Assembly (NCBI GenBank): GCA_040902305.1
Contig: JBBDXN010000134.1
Location: forward strand, 11,920-75,919
Reading direction: 5' to 3'
Length of the DNA: 64,000 nucleotides
DNA from: Candidatus Rokuibacteriota bacterium
GTDB lineage: Bacteria > Methylomirabilota > Methylomirabilia > Rokubacteriales > CSP1-6
A program made the translations under genes and the position numbers. Under the pieces are notes generated by a model. The model was not told the DNA's origin. It was given only the letters and a program-made list of their open reading frames with translations, and searched no databases. Shown here piece after piece: positions 24,650 through 62,137 of this stretch. Numbering within the stretch: position 1 is the first letter of the stretch; every line of letters begins with the position of its first letter.

Positions 24650-25516
24650 ATGGCGAGTATGAAACCCAGGCCCATCACCACGCCCATGGACGAGGCGACG
24701 GCCAGCTTCGGGTCGGGCTTGCGCTGGTGGCGCGAGCGCCGCGGCTTCTCGCAGCTCGACCTGGCCGGCGCCGCCGAGACCACCCAGCGTCACCTCAGCT
24801 TTCTGGAGTCTGGGCGGGCCGGCCCGAGCCCGGAGATGATCCTGCGGCTGGCCACGGTGCTGGACATCCCACTTCGCCAGCAGAACGCTCTGCTTCTCGC
24901 GGCCGGCTTCGCGCCGGCGTGGCGCGAGAGTGATCTCTCCGCACCGGAGCTCGCGCAGGTGAACGGCGCCCTCGACTACATGCTGGCGCAGCAGGAGCCG
25001 TACCCGGCGTTCGTCGTGGACCGGCGATGGAATCTCTTGCGCGCCAATGCCGGCGCGGGGCGATTCGTCGAGTTTCTCACGGAGCCCGCCCCGGCGACGG
25101 CGGCTGCTTCCGCGGAGCCAGTGAACTTCGCGGTCGCGTTGGTGTCCCCCGATGGGCTCCGCCCCTTCATCGTCAACTGGGAGGAGGTCGCCCTGTACTT
25201 TCTCCGCGGCGTGCAGGCCGACGCCATCGCGGATGGTACGCGGCAGACGGCCGAGCTCCTCACGCGGCTGCTCGCTTTCCCCGGCCTCCCCGCGCTCTCC
25301 CAGAACCCGCCGCCGGGAGAGACCCGGGCGCCGGTCCTGATCATTCACTTCAAGAGCAAGGAGACATCGCTCCGCCTGTTCACCACGATCGCGACCCTGG
25401 GTACTCCGCATGACGTGACCTTGCAGGAGATCCGCGTCGAGTGCTTTTTCCCCATGGATGACGCCACCGCCCAGATCTTTCGGGACTGGGGCCGCGGCGC
25501 GGGAGGGCCCCGCTGA
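24650..25516 (+). CDS. XRE-family HTH regulator with MmyB-like ligand-binding domain
   Basis: 288 aa from the ATG at 24650. LR..RERRGFSQL.LA......HLSFLE.GR..PS HTH, then P.PAFVVDRRWNLLRAN, typical of MmyB-like regulators. The stop overlaps the next start. Confidence 0.75.
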   Translation: MASMKPRPITTPMDEATASFGSGLRWWRERRGFSQLDLAGAAETTQRHLSFLESGRAGPSPEMILRLATVLDIPLRQQNALLLAAGFAPAWRESDLSAPELAQVNGALDYMLAQQEPYPAFVVDRRWNLLRANAGAGRFVEFLTEPAPATAAASAEPVNFAVALVSPDGLRPFIVNWEEVALYFLRGVQADAIADGTRQTAELLTRLLAFPGLPALSQNPPPGETRAPVLIIHFKSKETSLRLFTTIATLGTPHDVTLQEIRVECFFPMDDATAQIFRDWGRGAGGPR

Positions 25517-27597
25517 TGGACGGAGAATCTCGGGTCCTCGGAGCGTGCCCGATGGACTGTCCGGACACGTGTAGCTGGGTCGTCACCGTCAAGGATGGGC
25601 GCGCGGTTCGGCTGCAGGGCGATCCCACGCACCCCTTCACGCGCGGCGTCCTGTGCAACAAGCTCGACGACTACGTCGCGTACACGCAGTCCCCCGAGCG
25701 GCTCCTGTACCCGATGCGGCGCGTCGGCCCGAAGGGAGCCGGCGACTTCGAGCGGATCTCCTGGGACGGGGCGCTCGACGAGATCGCCGAGCGGCTGAGC
25801 CGTGTCATCCGCGAGTTCGGCGCGGAAGCCATATGGCCGTACCTGGGCTCGGGCAGCATGGGGCTTCTCCAGGGCTGCTATGGGGCGGGGCGCCGGTTCT
25901 GGAACGTCGTCGGGGCCTCCCGGCACCTCATGACGATCTGCACGATCGCGGGCGGGGTGGGCACCGGCTACACGCTCGGCGACAACCGCGTCGGCATGGA
26001 CCCCGAGACTCTCCGCTTCTCGAAGCTCATCATCCTCTGGGGCAGCAACACGCTGACCACCAACCATCACCTGTGGCGCTCCATCACGACGGCGCGTCGG
26101 AACGGCGCCCACCTCGTGGTGATCGACCCGACCCGGACGCGCACCGCCGATGCCGCGGACAGCCACCTCGCGCTCGTCCCCGGGACCGACGCCGCGCTGG
26201 CGCTCGGACTCCTGCACGTCGTGCTGAGCGAGGGCGCGGAGGATCGCGACTTCATCGACCGCCACACCCTCGGCTGGGACGCGTTCCGCCGGCGCATCCT
26301 GGACTACCCGCCGGCGCGCGTCGCCCTAGTCTGCGGCCTCCCGGTCGACGCGATCGTGGAGCTGGGGAAGCGGATCGCCCGCACGCGCCCCACGGGCATC
26401 CGGGTGACGATGGGGCTCCAGCGACACGGCGGGGGCGGGATGGCGGTGCGGACCATCACCTGCATCCCGGGCGTCACCGGCGACTGGCGATATCCCGGCG
26501 GCGGCGTCGGCTACGACACGCGGGGCTTCTTCGGCGTGAACTGGGCGGGGCTCTATCGGGATGATCTGCGGAAGACCCCCGCGCGCGCACTGAGCATGAC
26601 CCGTCTCGGCGAGGGCCTCCTCGAGGTAACGGACCCGCCGGTCAAGGCCTTGTTCGTCTACGCGAGCAACCCGGCCGCCAGCGTGCCGCACCAGACGAAG
26701 ATCCGGCGGGGGCTCGCGCGGCCCGACCTCTTCACGGTGGCGGTCGAGCACTTCCGGACGGACACCGTCGAGTACGCGGATATCGTGCTCCCCGCCACGA
26801 TGCAGCTCGAACACGCGGACGTCCAGATCTCGTACGGGCACCTCTACATCTCGTGGAACGAGCCCGCGGTGGCGCCGCCCGCGGAGTGCCTGCCCACCAC
26901 CGAGATCTTCCGGCGTCTGGCGCGGCGCCTGGGTCTGGACGTGCCCTGCCTCTACGACAGTGACGAGGATCTGGCGCGCCAGCTCCTCGACTCGGATCAC
27001 CCGTCGCTCCGCGGCATCACGTTCGACGCCCTGAGGACGCGGGGGTGGATGCGGCTCGCCGTCCCGGAGCCGTTCGTACCGTTCGCCGACGGCTTCCCCG
27101 CGCCGTCCGGGAAGCTCGAGTTCTACACCGCTCGCATGACCGAGGCGGGGCTCGACCCGCTCGCGGGCTACACGCCGCCCTACGAGGCGGCCCAGCGCGG
27201 CACGCCGCTGGCCGCCCGGTACCCGCTGGCTCTGATCGCGGGTGCCGACCACTACTTCCTGAACTCGGTGTTCGCGAACGTCCCCACCCAGACGCGGCGC
27301 TCCGGCCCGACGACCATCCGCGTCCACCCCGAGGACGCGACCCCCCGGCGGCTCGAGACCGGCTGCGAGGCCCGCGTCTTCAACGACCGCGGCGCGTTCG
27401 TCGCGCGGGTGGAGGTGACCCCGCGGGTCCGGCCGGGCGTGGTCGCCAGCACCAAGGGGCGCTGGCCACGGCTGTCGAAGGACGGCGCGACCGTCAACGC
27501 CACCGTGGACGAGCGAGACGCCGACATGGGTGGCGGAGCGGTCTTCCACGACAACCGCGTGGAGATTGAACGACTCTTTGTAGGCGAGAGCAGCTAG
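25516..27597 (+). CDS. molybdopterin-dependent oxidoreductase (MopB superfamily, single-subunit type)
   Basis: 693 aa. N-terminal CPMDCPDTCS Cys cluster, MopB body and a C-terminal beta-barrel molybdopterin-binding domain (V.IHP.DA..RG...G..V.V.N.RG). Confidence 0.88.
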   Translation: MDGESRVLGACPMDCPDTCSWVVTVKDGRAVRLQGDPTHPFTRGVLCNKLDDYVAYTQSPERLLYPMRRVGPKGAGDFERISWDGALDEIAERLSRVIREFGAEAIWPYLGSGSMGLLQGCYGAGRRFWNVVGASRHLMTICTIAGGVGTGYTLGDNRVGMDPETLRFSKLIILWGSNTLTTNHHLWRSITTARRNGAHLVVIDPTRTRTADAADSHLALVPGTDAALALGLLHVVLSEGAEDRDFIDRHTLGWDAFRRRILDYPPARVALVCGLPVDAIVELGKRIARTRPTGIRVTMGLQRHGGGGMAVRTITCIPGVTGDWRYPGGGVGYDTRGFFGVNWAGLYRDDLRKTPARALSMTRLGEGLLEVTDPPVKALFVYASNPAASVPHQTKIRRGLARPDLFTVAVEHFRTDTVEYADIVLPATMQLEHADVQISYGHLYISWNEPAVAPPAECLPTTEIFRRLARRLGLDVPCLYDSDEDLARQLLDSDHPSLRGITFDALRTRGWMRLAVPEPFVPFADGFPAPSGKLEFYTARMTEAGLDPLAGYTPPYEAAQRGTPLAARYPLALIAGADHYFLNSVFANVPTQTRRSGPTTIRVHPEDATPRRLETGCEARVFNDRGAFVARVEVTPRVRPGVVASTKGRWPRLSKDGATVNATVDERDADMGGGAVFHDNRVEIERLFVGESS

Positions 27598-28691
27598 CTC
27601 CGGACCAACTCGGCGACCGACTTCAACGGACTGCCGTCTTTCCTTGTGATCGGCCGCCGCGCCGGCCCGGTCTGGTCCCCGAACGTGGGCTGCCAGCAGG
27701 AGTGCTTGCCCGCGCCGCCGGTCACGATCACGGTCAGGTCGTCGGCGGAGCGTACCGCGGGCACCATGGTGTCGGGCGCGTCCTTGGCGCCGCGCTGGAT
27801 CAGGTGCGCGCGGTACTCGTCACCGAGCCGCGCCAGCGGGAAGCGGGCGTGCTCGAAGAGGAACTCCTTGACCTGCCGCTTGGTGAAGCCGTCGCGCGCG
27901 ATCGTGGCGGCGTGCTCGGGGCCGAGCGAGAGCAGGGGATGGCCGCCGGCCAGGAGATTGTTGCTGCCCGCCTGGCCCATGGCGCCCGCGATCACCTTCA
28001 AGATGCCGAGGCCGGTGTAACTGAAGTGGTCCTGGATATTGTGCGGGCCCTCGCACGCGATTGCGGTGACCAGGCTCGTGGCGGCCGGGAAGCCGTGTTC
28101 AATGTGTAGTGGCTCCCACGGGTTCGCTTCCTCGTTCTCGGCCACGCAGTAGGCGATCTTGGCCGGGCTGCCCTGGGTGGCGCGGTCGCCGGTGCCGGGC
28201 AGGCCGCCGCCCACGTTCATCAGGACGAGCCGGATCGCGCGCCCGATCGTGAGGTTGGCGCGGAAGCCCTGGCCGAAGGCGTTGTAGCCCGAGTTGATGC
28301 CGACCTCTTTTGCGATCGGCCCGTTGACGATGATCAGCGGGGCCACCGGGTGCGTGGTGGCCTGGATGGAGTCGAGATTGAACGCGGGATCGGCCAGCGC
28401 CTCGACCGCGGTGAGGATGACCGGCAGGTATTCCGGCCGGCAGCCCGCCATGATCGCGTTGATCGCGATGCGCTCCACCGTGGCCTCGCCTTGGCGCGGC
28501 GGCAGCACCGCCATGACTTCGCGCGGCTCCCGATCGGTGATGCGCAGGAACTCGCGCACGTCCTCTTCGGTTGGGGGCACGATCGGCAGCCCGTCGGTCC
28601 AGCCCTGCCCCTGATAGTGCCGGTTGATCTCCGAGTAGCCGCCCTTGAGGCGGAAGATCTTGGCCGCCGGGCCCGAGGCGGACACGCTCAT
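27594..28691 (-). CDS. conserved hypothetical protein (last gene of the UGSC operon)
   Basis: 365 aa with coding-like composition. The ATG overlaps the UGSC gene stop (ATGA). I cannot assign a family to the motif WTDGLPIVPPT. Confidence 0.7.
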   Translation of the reverse strand: MSVSASGPAAKIFRLKGGYSEINRHYQGQGWTDGLPIVPPTEEDVREFLRITDREPREVMAVLPPRQGEATVERIAINAIMAGCRPEYLPVILTAVEALADPAFNLDSIQATTHPVAPLIIVNGPIAKEVGINSGYNAFGQGFRANLTIGRAIRLVLMNVGGGLPGTGDRATQGSPAKIAYCVAENEEANPWEPLHIEHGFPAATSLVTAIACEGPHNIQDHFSYTGLGILKVIAGAMGQAGSNNLLAGGHPLLSLGPEHAATIARDGFTKRQVKEFLFEHARFPLARLGDEYRAHLIQRGAKDAPDTMVPAVRSADDLTVIVTGGAGKHSCWQPTFGDQTGPARRPITRKDGSPLKSVAELVRS

Positions 28692-29218
28692 CCCCGCGTG
28701 ACCGCCTTCCGCACGATCTCGACCGCGAGCTCCGCCTTCTTCACAACCTCGTCCTCGCGGATGCCGCCCAGCGGGTGGGGGATCAAGGCCAGGGGCAGAT
28801 CGGCGAGCCCGCGGTTCTTCGACTCGAGCCTCGCCAACTGCTCGAACTCATACGTCCCCATGACCACGGTGGGGATCCCCCGCTGCTCCAGTACGATGGC
28901 GCCGTGGATACTCCACGACGTGCACGACCCTCAGTCGGCGCTGCCGACCAGGACGAAGTCGCACGTCGTGAGCGCGGCCAGGATGTCGGGCGACGGCGCG
29001 CCCGCGATGCCCTTCTCGCGCTTGACGACGTCGCGGACCCCGTACTTCTCCTTGAGGCGCGCGACCACCGCCAGCATCAGGGTGCCCGCGTTGGCCTTGC
29101 TGTTGTCGAGGATGCCCGCGCGCTTGCCCTCGAGGCTGGCCAGGCGGGGCGCCAGGCCCGAGGCGAGAATCCGAGGCTCGGCGGTGGGGTCGTACAGGAC
29201 CTGCTCGTCCTGGCTCAT
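28688..29218 (-). CDS. UGSC-family selenoprotein (in-frame UGA = Sec at 28931-28933)
   Basis: The track ORF (95 aa) stops at a TGA, but the frame continues 81 codons to TGA 28688-28690. That second stop forms an ATGA overlap with the next gene. Read-through gives ...VLVGSAD-U-GSCTSWSIHGAIVLEQRGIPTVV..., the defining U-G-S-C motif. A hairpin follows 10 nt after the UGA. Confidence 0.8.
28900..28920 (-). other. putative bacterial SECIS hairpin of the UGSC gene
   Basis: The mRNA reads CGU-CGUGGA-GUA-UCCACG-GCG. This is a 6-bp perfect stem extendable to 9 bp including a G-U pair, with G and U in the apical loop, starting 10 nt after the UGA. Confidence 0.55.
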
Positions 29219-29730
29219 CGGCTGATCTCCTTCCGCCCTCGTAGTTTCCGATCATCCAGCAAGGTCAGCATCCGGTCCACGCCCAGCTCGAGGCACCGCT
29301 TGATCTCGTCCCGCGTCGCGCGGTAGCGGTCCTCGCCCTGGCCGAACGGGTCGTCGACGTCGCCGGCCTCGCCGGCCAGCTCGTGCAAGGTCAGGATCGG
29401 CCGGCCCTGGGCCTCCTCGTAGGCGCCGATCGTCTCCTTCTGCTGCCCGGTCATGGTGACGATGAGGTGCGCCTCCGCCACGATCTCGCGGTGACGGCGG
29501 AGGTCGGTGGAGGCGAACGCGTCCTCGGCCAGGTGGATGTCGTCCTCGCGCAGCACGATGCGCGCGTCGAGCGAGGGAATCATGCCGTCGCGGGCGTGGT
29601 TGGCGATGCCGCCCGAGCGCACCCGGACGTTGCCATTCACCCCGCGCGAATCGAGCATCTTCTCCAGGAGGACGTGGGCCATCACGCTGCGGCAGGTATT
29701 GGCGTGACAGACCAGGAGGACGTTGGTCAA
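29215..29730 (-). CDS. low-molecular-weight protein-tyrosine phosphatase / ArsC-like (C-X5-R-S)
   Basis: 171 aa. VLLVCHANTCRS P-loop near the N-terminus and the DVDDPFG general-acid motif. Only a TTG at 29730 (TTGA overlap with the upstream stop) places the P-loop correctly. The stop overlaps the UGSC start (ATGA). Confidence 0.78.
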   Translation of the reverse strand: MTNVLLVCHANTCRSVMAHVLLEKMLDSRGVNGNVRVRSGGIANHARDGMIPSLDARIVLREDDIHLAEDAFASTDLRRHREIVAEAHLIVTMTGQQKETIGAYEEAQGRPILTLHELAGEAGDVDDPFGQGEDRYRATRDEIKRCLELGVDRMLTLLDDRKLRGRKEISR

Positions 29731-30722
29731 CGCGCCTCCCAGGGAGATTGCCAGTACCGCACGCCCTTCCCCAGATCCTTCCACTCTTCCTTGGGCCGCT
29801 CGCTGAGGTTCTTGCCGAAGTTCGTGCCGGGCGGCTCGTGGAGGTTTTTGCCGAGCGTGTCCGGGAAGAGCTTGCCCAGCTCCTCGGGCTCGAGCCGGCG
29901 ATCGGCCTCGATGCGGCGGATCGGCTCGGGCAGCGCCATCAGGGTGTAGCCGTAGCCGAACGAGTGGAAGACCTGCCCGTTGACGTGGGCGGCGCCTTCG
30001 CTGGCCAGGAACACGACGAGGGGCGCCACGTTGTCCGGATCGCGCTCGGTCCCGATGGCCTGCTCGCTCGGCCACTTGCCGGTCTGCTCGAAGACCTGCC
30101 GACCGCGCGGCGTGGAATCGATCATGCGGGTCGCCCCGCTCGGCATGATCGCGTTCGACGTCACGTTGTACTTCGCCATGCCGTTGGCGGTGGACCAGGA
30201 GAGCCCGATGATGCCGGCCTTGGCCGCCCCGTAGTTGGGCTGCCCGGGCGAGCCAAGCGCGGAGACCGACGACATCGAGATGATGCGCCCGTACTTCTGC
30301 TCGCGCATGTGAGTGGAGGCGGCCCGGGTGCAGAAGTAGGTGCCGTCCAGATGCACGGCGAGGACCGCGTCCCATTCTTCCTTGGCCATGTTGAAGATCA
30401 TCCGGTCGCGCAGGATCCCGGCCACGTTGACCAGGATGTCGATGCGGCCGTAGGTCTTCACCACCTGCTCGACCATCTCGGTGGCCGCCTTGTGGTCGGC
30501 CACCGAGCCGTAGTTGGCCGACGCGGTGCCGCCGGCCTTGACGATCTCGTCCACCACCTGAGCCGCCGGCCCGGTGGCTATGCCCTCGCCGTCCAGGCTC
30601 GCGCCCAGGTCGTTCACCACCACCTTGGCGCCGGCCTTGGCCAGCGCGATCGCGATGCCGCGGCCGATGCCGCGGCCCGCGCCCGTCACGAGCGCGGCCC
30701 TGCCCTCGAGCAGCTTCGCCAT
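29727..30722 (-). CDS. SDR-family oxidoreductase, extended type (hydroxyacyl-CoA dehydrogenase-like)
   Basis: 331 aa from the ATG at 30722 (MAKLLEGRAALVTGAGRGIG...). YGAAK catalytic motif and a C-terminal extension of about 80 aa. Confidence 0.88.
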   Translation of the reverse strand: MAKLLEGRAALVTGAGRGIGRGIAIALAKAGAKVVVNDLGASLDGEGIATGPAAQVVDEIVKAGGTASANYGSVADHKAATEMVEQVVKTYGRIDILVNVAGILRDRMIFNMAKEEWDAVLAVHLDGTYFCTRAASTHMREQKYGRIISMSSVSALGSPGQPNYGAAKAGIIGLSWSTANGMAKYNVTSNAIMPSGATRMIDSTPRGRQVFEQTGKWPSEQAIGTERDPDNVAPLVVFLASEGAAHVNGQVFHSFGYGYTLMALPEPIRRIEADRRLEPEELGKLFPDTLGKNLHEPPGTNFGKNLSERPKEEWKDLGKGVRYWQSPWEAR

Positions 30723-30735
30723 GTCCGGCCTCCGA

Positions 30736-32451
30736 CTACGCGGTCGCCCGCGCGAGCGGGCCGCGCAGGAGCCGTCCGGGGTGCGCGCCGGTGTGCTTGC
30801 CGTCACGCAGCAGGATCTCGCCGTTGACCACGGTGGCCGCGATGCCGCGGGTGCGCTGGATCAGCCGCTTGGCCCCCGCGGGCAGGTCCCGCACCACCTC
30901 GGGCAGCTCGGCCGCGATGGTGTCGGGATCGAAGACCACGAAGTCGGCGGCCATGCCCTCACGGATCAGGCCGCGGTCGGTGAAGCCCCAGTAGCTGGCG
31001 GGCACGAACGACAGCATGCGCACCGCCTGCTCGAGCGTGAGCGCCTGCTTGGCGCGCACCCAGTGGCTCAAGAGATAGGTCTGGAGCGAGCTGTCCATGA
31101 GCTGGGAGACGTGGGCGCCCGAGTCGGAGAAGGTCACCACCGCCTGCGGGTGCTTGATCAGCTCGAGCGCCAGCTCCTGGTTCTCGTTGGCGATCGGGTG
31201 GAAGAAGAAGCGGTCCATGTCCTTCTCGAGCGCCAGATCGATCATGGCCTCGACCGGGTCGACGCCCCGCTCGCGGGCGATCTCGGCCACCGAGCGGTGC
31301 GGCGGATCCACCGAGTCCAGCACGAAGATCCAGTCGTACGCGGCCTGGCGGGCCTCGGTACCGAGGGCCTTGCGGCTGTCCCGCTCGCGCGAGGCCTCGA
31401 CCAGCTTCCGGCGCAGCTCGGGGTCGCGCAGCCGCGTCTGCTGCTCGCCGAGCGGCAGGGCGCGCAGCTCCTTCCACACCGGCAGGCGATCGAACGGCAT
31501 CTGGGTCTTGAACGAGAGCACGAGCGACAGCGCGCGGCTGTGGACCTGGGCGAACATCCGCCCGCCCGCCCGGTTGGTCTCCTCGATCAGCCGCACGTAG
31601 TGGCGCCACATGTCGGGCGCGTCCTTGCGGGTGAAGAGGCCGAAGGTGATCGGCCGGCCGGACTCGACGGCCAGCGCCTTGAGCCGCTTGTGGTAGTCGG
31701 GCAGGTCCGGGTGGTCCACCTTGCGGTCCACGCCCTCGCCCGCCAGCTCGAAGATGCCCGCGTTGAGCTCGCCCATCACGCCGACCAGGCGGCGCACCTC
31801 GTCCCAGCTCGCCATGCGGCTCGCCACCGGGCGGGAGTCGGGCGTCTCGTGGCTGGGCGACCGGGAGGTCGTGAAGCCGATCGCGCCGGCCATCAGCGCG
31901 TTGCGCAGCTCGCCCTCCATCGCGGCCAGGTCGTCCTCGCTCGCCGCTCCATCGAACGCGCGCTCGCCCATCACGTAGGTGCGCAGGGCGGAGTGGCCGA
32001 TGTAGCCCGAGTAGTTGATGCCCTTGGGCAGCGAGTCGAGCGTGTCGAGGAACTCGGGGAAGGTGGTCCAGCGCCAGTCGATGCCGGCTTCCATGGCCTC
32101 GGCCGCGATGTCCTCGGCGCGCTGCAGGTTGCGGATGACCAGGTGCCGGTCTTCCTTGGCGCAGGGGGCGAGGGTGAAGCCGCAGTTGCCCATGACGACG
32201 CTGGTGATCCCGTGCCAGCAGGAGGACGTCCCGAGCGGATCCCAGAAGATCTGGGCGTCCATGTGGGTGTGCCCGTCCACGAATCCCGGCGCGACGACCC
32301 GGCCCTCCGCGTCGATGACTTCTCGAGCGCTTTCGCGAAGGCGACCGATGGCAGAGATCCGGCCGTTGGTCACTCCAACATCCGCGCGAAATCGCGGCAG
32401 GCCGGATCCGTCCACCACCCATCCGTTCTTGATCAGCAGGTCATAGGCCAT
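30736..32451 (-). CDS. amidohydrolase, N-acyl-D-amino-acid deacylase (D-aminoacylase) family
   Basis: 571 aa. DLLIKNG.VVDG.G, PGF.D.HTH.D and GIT..V.GNCG motifs. Confidence 0.88.
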   Translation of the reverse strand: MAYDLLIKNGWVVDGSGLPRFRADVGVTNGRISAIGRLRESAREVIDAEGRVVAPGFVDGHTHMDAQIFWDPLGTSSCWHGITSVVMGNCGFTLAPCAKEDRHLVIRNLQRAEDIAAEAMEAGIDWRWTTFPEFLDTLDSLPKGINYSGYIGHSALRTYVMGERAFDGAASEDDLAAMEGELRNALMAGAIGFTTSRSPSHETPDSRPVASRMASWDEVRRLVGVMGELNAGIFELAGEGVDRKVDHPDLPDYHKRLKALAVESGRPITFGLFTRKDAPDMWRHYVRLIEETNRAGGRMFAQVHSRALSLVLSFKTQMPFDRLPVWKELRALPLGEQQTRLRDPELRRKLVEASRERDSRKALGTEARQAAYDWIFVLDSVDPPHRSVAEIARERGVDPVEAMIDLALEKDMDRFFFHPIANENQELALELIKHPQAVVTFSDSGAHVSQLMDSSLQTYLLSHWVRAKQALTLEQAVRMLSFVPASYWGFTDRGLIREGMAADFVVFDPDTIAAELPEVVRDLPAGAKRLIQRTRGIAATVVNGEILLRDGKHTGAHPGRLLRGPLARATA

Positions 32452-60767: not shown

Positions 60768-62137
60768 TGGCACAGGGCATCCGGGACTTCGTGGCCGGCT
60801 ACGAGCGCGCCTTCCCCGGCGAGGTCGTGCGGGTTTCCGAGCCGGTGACGACCGACTTCGACGTCATGGCGCTCGTGCTCGAGTACGAGCGGCGCCGCCG
60901 CTGGCCCATTCTCCTGTTCGAGAAGGTCGCGGGCGCCGACATGCCGATCATCGCCAACGTGGTGGCCAGCCGGAAAGCGCTCGCCTGGGCGCTCGGGGTG
61001 CCCGAGACGCGCCTGGCGCGCGAATACGCGCGGCGCATCAAGGACACGATCAAGCCCAAGGTCGTCGGGGATGCCTCCTTCCGCGAGCGCGTGCTGACCG
61101 GGGCCGATCTCGACCTCGGCCGGCTGCCGATCCCGACCTACTTCCCCGGCGACGCCGGCAAATATTTGACGGCCGGCATGCTGGTCGCACGCGATCCCGA
61201 GACGGGCGTGGAGACGGAAGGCTACCACCGCTTCCAGGTGAAGGGCCGCGACCGCATGGGCGTGAGCCTCCACTCGCGGCGCCGCATGTTCGAGTACCAG
61301 CGCCGCGCCGAGGCCCGCGGCCAGGCGCTGCCGTGCGCGGTCGCGCTCGGCCTCCACCCGCTGGTGTCGATGGGCTCGCTCGCCTACCCGCCCGCCGAGG
61401 TCGGCAAGTTCGAGGTGGTGGGCGGGCTCTTCGGCGAGCCGCTCGAGGTCGGACCATGTACCTCGATAGACCTGACGGTTCCGGCCGCGGCCGAGATCGT
61501 GATCGAGGGAGAGATCCTCCCCGGGGTGCGCGAGCCCGAGGGCCCGTTCGGCGAGTTCACCGGCTACTTCTCGCGCCGCTCGACCGAGCACGTCTTCCAG
61601 GCAAAGGCGATCTCGATGCGGGCCGCCCCGTGGTTCCAGTCGATCGGCTCCGGCCGCGCCGGCGATCACATCACGACGCTGGCCCTCGTGCGCGAGGCGG
61701 AGATCTGGAACGCGCTCCAGCGGGTGATCCCCAACGTGACCGGCGTCCACGTGCCGCTGTCCGGCACGTCGTCCTTCAGCGCCTACATCGCCATCAAGCA
61801 GGGCCGCCCGGGCGAGGCCAAGCACGTGATCCCGATCGTGCTCGGCGTGGACCACTACCTGAAGCTCGTGGTCGTGGTGGACGACGACATCGACGTGTTC
61901 GACGAGTCCGACGTGATGTGGGCGGTGGCCACGCGGATGCAGGCCGACCGCGACCTGGTCACCATCGGCGGGAGCCTCGGCGCGCTGCTCGACCCGAGCG
62001 CCGACGAGCGCGGAGTCACCGCCAAGCTCGGCATCGACGCCACGCGCCCGTTCGGCGAGCCCTTCGCGGCCAAGCTGGTGATGGATCCCGCGAAGATGGC
62101 GTGGGCGCGCGCGCTGGTCGACCGCCTCGGCGGCTGA
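60767..62137 (+). CDS. UbiD-family (prFMN-dependent) decarboxylase
   Basis: 456 aa from the ATG at 60767 (TGATG overlap). EGPFGEFTGYF, YHRFQV, VVVDDDIDV. No UbiX-like gene in the window. Confidence 0.9.
   Translation: MAQGIRDFVAGYERAFPGEVVRVSEPVTTDFDVMALVLEYERRRRWPILLFEKVAGADMPIIANVVASRKALAWALGVPETRLAREYARRIKDTIKPKVVGDASFRERVLTGADLDLGRLPIPTYFPGDAGKYLTAGMLVARDPETGVETEGYHRFQVKGRDRMGVSLHSRRRMFEYQRRAEARGQALPCAVALGLHPLVSMGSLAYPPAEVGKFEVVGGLFGEPLEVGPCTSIDLTVPAAAEIVIEGEILPGVREPEGPFGEFTGYFSRRSTEHVFQAKAISMRAAPWFQSIGSGRAGDHITTLALVREAEIWNALQRVIPNVTGVHVPLSGTSSFSAYIAIKQGRPGEAKHVIPIVLGVDHYLKLVVVVDDDIDVFDESDVMWAVATRMQADRDLVTIGGSLGALLDPSADERGVTAKLGIDATRPFGEPFAAKLVMDPAKMAWARALVDRLGG

Follow-up and report, generated by a model that had tools for sequence, protein, structure and literature searches.

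The contig JBBDXN010000134.1 of a Candidatus Rokuibacteriota bacterium (assembly GCA_040902305.1) carries on its minus strand a short open reading frame (ORF) of 95 codons that ends at a TGA, and the question raised by this locus is whether that TGA closes a small protein or is decoded as selenocysteine (Sec) within a longer one. We analysed a stretch of 64,000 nucleotides of this contig (positions 11,920 to 75,919), referred to here as the window, which has a G+C content of 69.5%. An earlier reading of the window, made from its letters alone and called below the sequence-only reading, had taken the ORF for the truncated first half of a selenoprotein of the UGSC family. Our analysis supports both the observation and its interpretation. 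The gene is an ordinary member of the known UGSC family and was correctly called as such. With good confidence, it is a Sec-decoded gene that works together with a 365-residue protein encoded next to it, a statement that concerns identity and leaves the detailed chemistry aside.

The reading frame of the UGSC gene starts at an ATG (29218-29216), runs through 95 codons ending in CDFVLVGSAD and meets the TGA at 28933-28931, just as had been described. Past this TGA, 80 further sense codons (GSCTSWSIHGAIVLEQRGIPTVVMGTYEFEQ...VRKAVTRG) follow in the same frame up to a second TGA at 28690-28688, giving a read-through product of 95 + 1 + 80 = 176 residues. The closing TGA and the ATG of the partner gene (28691-28689) overlap as ATGA, so that the proposed read-through length and the proposed overlap are both borne out. 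The sequence-only reading had further argued that such an exact 4-nucleotide coupling works only if the UGA is decoded; the coupling is consistent with read-through and is not a proof of it.

The read-through product, with U written as C, was compared with profile hidden Markov models (HMMs). The 176 residues match Pfam PF24696 (UGSC) at 150.3 bits (gathering threshold 25; E 7.8e-44) over model positions 2-171 of 172. The score against NCBIfam NF041046, 'UGSC family (seleno)protein', is 120.5 bits. Taken by themselves, the 80 residues past the TGA still hit the second half of this model (E 8.5e-19), and the family identity put forward earlier thus holds from end to end. The motif D-U-G-S-C-T occupies residues 95-100, in which D, C/U, G, S, C and T are invariant across 38 aligned members. 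The family was described in 2007-2008 as 'UGSC-containing protein' by Zhang and Gladyshev (PMC1976440, PMC2398784). The window protein shares with it the full-length HMM match, the [U/C]GSC motif, the occurrence of Sec and cysteine (Cys) forms and a function that is undescribed. Nothing essential differs; the window clade comes from Methylomirabilota of soil or groundwater, whereas the described family came from aquatic samples.

Next, we compared the codon at the Sec position among homologues. A search of one genome per species returned 79 loci with UGSC homologues, in which the aligned codon is TGA in 36 cases and TGC or TGT in 43. The TGA loci comprise 34 at 70-98% protein identity to the window gene, mostly labelled Methylomirabilota or Rokubacteria, and two from Chloroflexota, while the Cys-codon loci belong to Binatia, haloarchaea, sphingomonads, Acidimicrobiia, Embleya and other actinomycetes, and one myxobacterium. 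When the window and four metagenome loci are included, 38 Sec (TGA) forms stand beside 45 Cys (TGC/TGT) forms at the same codon, and the Cys orthologues that the sequence-only reading had suggested looking for therefore exist. The TGA forms span four lineages, namely Methylomirabilota, two lineages of Chloroflexota and one known from metagenomes.

These homologues also bear on the simplest alternative, in which the TGA is a true stop and a 95-residue gene is followed by untranslated or separately translated sequence, as in a split gene or a pseudogene. Gene callers do read the locus in this way: dozens of 96-97-residue 'hypothetical proteins' stand in public records, and the homologue at locus L404 is called as two proteins of 93 and 71 residues. 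TGA is, in addition, the commonest stop codon in the window, where it ends 13 of 26 confident ORFs. However, among 32 distinct TGA-type genes the amino acids past the TGA are conserved down to the last codons while the synonymous codons vary, which indicates a translated sequence under purifying selection. The part past the TGA matches the second half of the UGSC models, the Cys homologues are continuous across the position, and the sequence right past the TGA offers neither a start codon nor a ribosome-binding site from which a second half could be translated separately. We also scanned all six frames of the window for in-frame TGAs with coding signal on both sides (G+C at third codon positions, GC3, above 0.8; at second positions, GC2, below 0.6; at least 30 codons on each side). 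Exactly one TGA qualified, that of the UGSC gene, with a GC3 of 1.00 upstream and 0.93 over the 80 codons downstream. We find a true stop at this position hardly credible.

The sequence-only reading had noticed a hairpin on the 3' side of the UGA. It is present as CGUCGUGGA-GUA-UCCACGGCG, folding into a predicted 9-bp stem (28920-28900) behind a 10-nucleotide spacer, with its first base 11 nucleotides after the UGA; the 6-bp core quoted earlier starts 3 nucleotides inside this stem. Counting the U of UGA as position 1, the G and U of the loop fall at positions 23 and 24. The Escherichia coli fdhF sequence, which we checked, has its loop G and U likewise at 23/24, and these are the bases of the fdhF selenocysteine insertion sequence (SECIS) that SelB recognises in E. 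coli. Both hairpins lie within the coding sequence directly past the UGA. They differ in that the window stem is a perfect 9-bp helix with a loop of 3 nucleotides (5 if the closing A-U pair opens) and is without a counterpart of the bulged U17 of fdhF, whereas the hairpin of the Chloroflexota locus L062 has a bulged A.

The hairpin stands out both within the window and among homologues. Among the 1417 TGA trinucleotides on the two strands of the window, only that of the UGSC gene precedes a stem of at least 9 bp with a loop of 3-6 nucleotides and G23/U24; one other reaches 7-8 bp with G23/U24. Codons +3 to +10 (TGC ACG TCG TGG AGT ATC CAC GGC) are invariant at the nucleotide level in 32 of 32 distinct genes. 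Over codons +1 to +12 the mean number of minor codons is 0.45, compared with 6.1 in the rest of the gene (p < 1e-5; none of 100,000 random samples of 11 codons was as low as the hairpin block). Specifically, the serine codon at +7 is the rare AGT in all 38 Sec forms and AGC in all 28 Cys forms that have serine there. Three other Sec lineages carry hairpins of differing sequence at the same offset with G23/U24 kept: that of L035 has the loop GUG and an internal mismatch, that of L062 the loop GUU along with its bulge, and that of L404 the loop GUG and a U-A pair in place of the U-G pair of the window. The SECIS check proposed in the sequence-only reading thus comes out in favour, with a hairpin at the canonical distance, a GU loop, constraint at synonymous sites and different-sequence hairpins in those three lineages. 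We interpret the hairpin as a bacterial SECIS with predicted SelB binding. In E. coli the fdhF SECIS brings SelB with its Sec-tRNA(Sec) to the ribosome, and the window hairpin would do likewise; translation would then run through 80 codons to the stop codon within the ATGA shared with the partner gene. A second SECIS-like hairpin of 8 bp, at 61737-61780 on the plus strand with G/U at 23/24, was considered and rejected; its TGA does not share the frame of the local gene (GC2 is 0.92-0.99 in the frame of the TGA), and we regard it as a chance match for this reason.

To find the machinery for Sec insertion, we searched related genomes. A GC-biased pattern for the pyridoxal-phosphate motif of SelA led to a Methylomirabilia contig with selA and selB, and related loci carry a 98-nucleotide tRNA-Sec gene with anticodon TCA about 1.4 kb upstream of selA. 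In Methylomirabilota the tRNA-Sec is followed by selA and selB in one cluster (L203-L220, L251; e.g. L203:3117-3214), and the 98-nucleotide tRNA is almost invariant across the phylum. The matches listed in the SelA-based search came from 19 loci labelled Methylomirabilota or Rokuibacteriota and one labelled Binatia, and none of them from a UGSC-bearing assembly, the peptide patterns being too specific. A 30-nucleotide invariant stretch of the tRNA-Sec was also run across the genome collection, and at least 12 of the assemblies with this stretch have a TGA-type UGSC gene as well (DATFUK, JBGQHJ, DASQAL, DATHSW, CAWKCA, JBKPBU, JBGPTW, JBGQLG, DATIFV, CAVVEU, JACPCW and JBKKCN). CAVVEU, among these carriers, holds the closest relative of the window (L032, CAVVEU010000033.1; 92% nucleotide identity). 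In the loci fetched around this stretch, each extending up to 8 kb or to the contig end, ARAGORN annotated tRNA-SeC in 12 of 12, with selA adjoining in 7 and selB in 4. Of the Sec machinery, tRNA-Sec, selA and selB are present in sister genomes of the window. A 2026 review additionally reports a Methylomirabilota metagenome-assembled genome (MAG) with 63 predicted selenoprotein genes (PMC13188914).

Some of the labels in these collections are at odds with the sequences that bear them. Contigs L001, L003, L004, L006, L007, L008, L025, L031 and L308 are labelled Acidoferrum, Deferrimicrobiaceae, Chloroflexota, Verrucomicrobiia, Dormiibacterota, Limnocylindria or Solirubrobacteraceae, yet show 76-98% protein identity to the Methylomirabilota locus, and the tRNA-Sec 30-mer of Methylomirabilota type is also present in a MAG labelled Nitrosotalea, an archaeon. 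The oddly labelled contigs are probably mis-binned.

Several results weigh against Sec decoding of a UGSC gene. The NF041046 score misses the equivalog cut-off (125 bits) by 4.5 bits. A close Cys form, P0003, also falls short at 120.2 bits, so the shortfall is a property of the whole clade, other family members reaching E 5.5e-46; the near miss does not conflict with the PF24696 result. The folding energy of the hairpin alone is not significant for DNA of about 70% G+C (z = -0.9), and an Rfam scan of the whole window at gathering thresholds returned nothing, no Rfam family fitting the hairpin. The potential to form a stem follows in part from the conserved peptide TSWS(I/V)H and is shared by some Cys forms, and the discriminating feature is for this reason the loop and not the stem. 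As for the sel genes that the sequence-only reading had proposed to look for, tblastn with E. coli SelA, SelB and SelD as queries gave no match, neither in the window nor among the first 79 loci, and ARAGORN found no tRNA gene in the 64 kb; in the related assemblies described above, tRNA-Sec, selA and selB were found. Finally, selD was not seen in any of the fetched tRNA-Sec loci, each of up to 8 kb or ending with its contig.

The UGA could also be read through as a standard amino acid, by near-cognate suppression or in a reassigned code. Short metagenome contigs give this idea some substance: four of them (P0001, P0002, P0003 and P0004) encode full-length 176-residue relatives with serine (TCA), leucine (TTA), arginine or Cys at the Sec position. 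In the two variants that were checked (L409:1786-1788 and L410:417-419), however, the SECIS hairpin is intact including AGT ATC, which makes the serine- and leucine-type variants look like recent mutations of TGA or single-base errors and not like true Cys-type genes. The code is not reassigned, since TGA terminates half of the confident ORFs of the window as given above. Moreover, the UGA aligns with an invariant Cys, the classical Sec/Cys signature; the loop has the G23/U24 of a SECIS, its U being kept by a rare codon only in the TGA forms; and MAGs having the TGA gene carry tRNA-Sec, with selA or selB beside it in some. Insertion of a standard amino acid is in our view very improbable. Together, these data indicate that Sec is very probably inserted at codon 96 in a SelB-dependent manner.

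We then turned to the 365-residue partner. Neither Pfam, searched up to E 10, nor NCBIfam contains a family that its sequence matches, and comparison with PDB sequences, by single sequence and by profile, gave none or chance matches; more than 8000 database relatives exist, almost all unnamed or 'hypothetical', and looking up the exact sequence of the window partner returned no record. A partner homologue adjoins the UGSC homologue on the same strand in 75 of the 79 loci, and three of the four exceptions are cut at a contig end. The partner lies downstream of UGSC in Methylomirabilota, Binatia, haloarchaea and sphingomonads and upstream of it in Acidimicrobiia and other actinomycetes. This adjacency is seen in at least 8 bacterial and archaeal phyla, and the 79 loci have no third conserved gene in common. 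When the search was started from the partner, three of three distant partner proteins had a PF24696 gene immediately upstream. In-frame stops in the partner homologues of L037 and L066 were considered as a possible second Sec and proved to be true gene ends only.

The two proteins are also joined in nature. An exhaustive profile search yielded 3584 representative UGSC clusters (50% identity) from Bacteria and haloarchaea. Among the best 150 family representatives, 12 (about 8%) are of fusion length, 485-591 residues, with UGSC at the N-terminus and partner motifs behind it; all 12 sequences carry these motifs, and one, P0351, was confirmed by BLASTP with 46% identity to the window partner over 361 residues. 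A fusion of UGSC to a domain named 'Unknown_1', which may or may not be the present partner, was noted in 2008 (PMC2398784). The partner has two near-invariant Cys (Cys84 and Cys182) and five invariant or near-invariant histidines (His114, His217, His222, His260 and His330). Gene fusion and universal adjacency argue strongly that the two proteins are parts of a single enzyme; pairing with the partner is obligate, and in some organisms the two are fused. UGSC and the partner probably form a physical complex, a two-part enzyme whose small redox subunit is UGSC. Some of the fused members vary in the motif itself, P0454, P0463 and P0474 having CGAS, CGTS and CGGC, respectively, instead of CGSC; the CGAS and CGTS variants show that the first Cys/Sec is more conserved than the second.

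To obtain structural information, we used an AlphaFold2 (AF2) model of a Cys form 73% identical to the window protein, with a predicted local distance difference test score (pLDDT) of 90. Structure prediction drew on 36 database sequences of 48-94% identity. The UGSC model is an α/β/α domain of flavodoxin-like fold with five parallel strands, and the U/C-G-S-C motif sits between strand 3 and the N-terminal end of the helix that follows. In the PDB, the model resembles generic domains of the flavodoxin-like, CheY-like and B12-binding kinds; by sequence, UGSC gave chance matches only in the PDB (single sequence and profile). A thioredoxin-like fold together with a UxxC redox motif was suggested in 2008 (PMC2398784), and UGSC might accordingly be a free-standing thiol oxidoreductase of thioredoxin fold, a general antioxidant whose neighbour gene is incidental. 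The motif does sit at a strand-to-helix junction, as in thioredoxins. The five-stranded parallel model, however, does not support that fold, no thioredoxin is found among its best 50 PDB neighbours, and a partner that is adjacent in essentially all loci and fused in a fraction of the representatives is hard to call incidental. We consider such a stand-alone role improbable.

A different relation emerged from comparison with selenoprotein B, the family of GrdB, GrdF and GrdH of the glycine, sarcosine and betaine reductases and of PrdB of D-proline reductase. Among the 38 members, 31 match the GrdB model TIGR01917 (best E 8.5e-5), while 15 match GrdF, 12 PrdB, 10 TIGR01918 and 8 GrdH, and the matches fall on the C-terminal part of these models. 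Specifically, residues 85-173 of the window protein align with TIGR01917 positions 336-417 at 15.2 bits (cut-off 602), a region which we take to hold the Sec of GrdB, as a region and not as an exact column. Like UGSC, selenoprotein B is one subunit of a multi-subunit enzyme and has a Sec followed by a Cys at UxxC spacing. The two differ in size (150-180 residues for UGSC, about 240 for PrdB and about 430 for GrdB). They also differ in company, the UGSC partner being an unrelated 365-residue protein with no pyruvoyl proprotein (GrdE, PrdA) or GrdA nearby, and in hosts, which include aerobes and haloarchaea for UGSC and are amino-acid-fermenting anaerobes for selenoprotein B. On this profile evidence, we regard UGSC as a candidate distant homologue of that part of selenoprotein B which bears Sec, and not as a member of that family.

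This relation suggests a mechanism for the enzyme. UGSC would be the small redox subunit and the 365-residue partner the large subunit. Sec96 would act as nucleophile or redox centre, forming a selenenylsulfide with Cys99, and this bond would be re-reduced by a thiol system. A selenenylsulfide mechanism has been proposed for PrdB. We consider a selenoprotein-B-like redox mechanism through a Sec96-Cys99 selenenylsulfide plausible, at slightly less than an even chance. What speaks against it is, first, that the selenoprotein B similarity is weak, at most about 20 bits compared with cut-offs above 600, and that no gene of GrdA, GrdE or PrdA type lies near any locus (window, L404-L408 and the recurrent neighbour clusters of the 79 loci). 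In addition, the second Cys is missing in P0454 (CGAS) and P0463 (CGTS), a poor fit to an obligatory U/C-x-x-C redox pair, and the sole structural relatives of the partner are iron-sulfur (Fe-S) fumarate hydratases, at low TM-score.

The last point leads to the main functional alternative, in which U/C-x-x-C is a metal or Fe-S ligand acting with Cys84, Cys182 and histidines of the partner in a dehydratase of hydro-lyase type or an isomerase. The AF2 model of the partner (pLDDT 84.6; predicted TM-score 0.86) has class I (4Fe-4S) fumarate hydratases as its only significant structural matches (Foldseek E 2e-4 to 1e-3, probability up to 0.95), and some class I fumarate hydratases and tartrate dehydratases also consist of two subunits, the second of them small. 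The conserved Cys and histidines of the partner fit a metal site, and the neighbours are often genes of acyl-CoA metabolism, including enoyl-CoA and MaoC hydratases. Some UGSC proteins, moreover, are fused to a NifU-like domain: P0341 and P0342 have it at the C-terminus, carrying CxxC (PF01106 at 28.7 bits in P0342), which hints at Fe-S or thiol-redox chemistry. Against a metal site, the TM-scores are only 0.26-0.32, and profile comparison by hhalign gave a probability below 1% for the partner with E. coli FumA and TtdA and nothing for UGSC with TtdB, so the fumarase-like match is a lead only. The partner does not belong to the Fe-S fumarase family: it has no Fumerase or Fumerase_C match, only two conserved Cys instead of three, and no sequence or profile similarity, and the UGSC fold differs from that of the small subunit of these enzymes. 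Class I fumarases bind their cluster by three Cys of one subunit, and Sec is not known to serve as an Fe-S ligand. The sequence relation of UGSC points to selenoprotein B, where Sec serves as a redox nucleophile. We regard a metal-dependent hydro-lyase as rather unlikely. The members without the second Cys (CGAS, CGTS) fit neither the redox nor the metal model neatly.

The features of the locus are collected in Table 1.

Table 1 Features of the UGSC locus (positions in the window)
Feature	Position	Strand	Basis
UGSC selenoprotein gene, 176 codons plus stop, Sec (predicted) at codon 96	28688..29218	-	Translation; PF24696; NF041046; coding signal on both sides of the TGA
In-frame UGA, predicted Sec, opening the D-[U/C]-G-S-C-T motif after D	28931..28933	-	TGA versus TGC/TGT in homologues; invariant motif
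Predicted bacterial SECIS, 9-bp stem 28920-28912 / 28908-28900, loop GUA 28911-28909	28900..28920	-	Fold; fdhF geometry; codon invariance
365-residue partner ORF	27594..28691	-	Adjacency; natural fusions; AF2 model
Low-molecular-weight (LMW) phosphotyrosine-phosphatase / ArsC-like gene, 171 residues, TTG start, CX5R loop VCHANTCRS	29215..29730	-	PF01451, 67 bits
Short-chain dehydrogenase (SDR) gene, probable true start ATG 30722	29727..30806	-	PF13561/PF00106
Amidohydrolase (Amidohydro_3), first gene of an apparent five-gene operon	30736..32451	-	PF07969, 121 bits

The stop of the SDR gene and the TTG start of the phosphatase-like gene share TTGA (29730-29727), and the stop of the phosphatase-like gene and the start of UGSC share ATGA (29218-29215). 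SDR, phosphatase-like, UGSC and partner genes are thus chained by three successive 4-nucleotide overlaps (29727-29730, 29215-29218 and 28688-28691), which suggests tight translational coupling through the Sec codon; the amidohydrolase gene sits just upstream of this chain. The five-gene stretch is 92% identical in nucleotides to a contig of a Rokubacteria (Methylomirabilota) MAG, and the arrangement recurs at about 90-92% nucleotide identity in related MAGs. Among the 79 loci, a phosphatase-like gene upstream of UGSC is confined to the clade of the window (L001-L013 and L030-L034 only). In L032, the protein P0007, called with 260 residues up to the TGA, has the LMW-phosphatase/ArsC-like gene fused in frame to the N-terminal half of UGSC. 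This join may be genuine or may stem from an indel in the assembly; a genuine fusion would tie the phosphatase-like protein functionally to UGSC. On the other side of the locus, a plus-strand gene for a 693-residue molybdopterin oxidoreductase (25516-27597; Fe4S4, Molybdopterin and Molydop_binding domains) and the partner gene are convergent, their stop codons overlapping by 4 nucleotides. This oxidoreductase is of a Cys or otherwise non-Sec type, as it has no in-frame TGA.

In the clade of the window, the UGSC-partner pair follows the amidohydrolase, SDR and LMW-phosphatase/ArsC-like genes. Elsewhere, recurrent neighbours resemble acyl-CoA dehydrogenase, family III CoA transferase, enoyl-CoA and MaoC hydratases, acyl-CoA ligases, Amidohydro_2 proteins and luciferase-like oxidoreductases; they were named by Pfam matches in L404-L408 and by reading the sequences by eye for the recurrent clusters of the 79 loci. 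These neighbours point to the catabolism of some organic acid or amide, without identifying the substrate.

For a selenoprotein specialist nothing here is surprising, as the family has curated models and Methylomirabilota have already been reported as rich in selenoproteins. The locus shows cleanly how ORF callers split a selenoprotein gene, and the same miscall is repeated in the dozens of public Methylomirabilota records noted above. The pairing and fusion with the partner, the flavodoxin-like model and the relation to selenoprotein B are modest additions that make the function of UGSC testable. UGSC and its partner could, as a tentative proposal, be a widespread, uncharacterised two-subunit (seleno)enzyme, sometimes fused, in which a minimal relative of selenoprotein B is joined to a new catalytic domain. 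Such an enzyme may catalyse a step, reductive or dependent on thiol/selenol, by which aerobic soil organisms, and not amino-acid-fermenting anaerobes, break down an organic acid or acyl-CoA compound.

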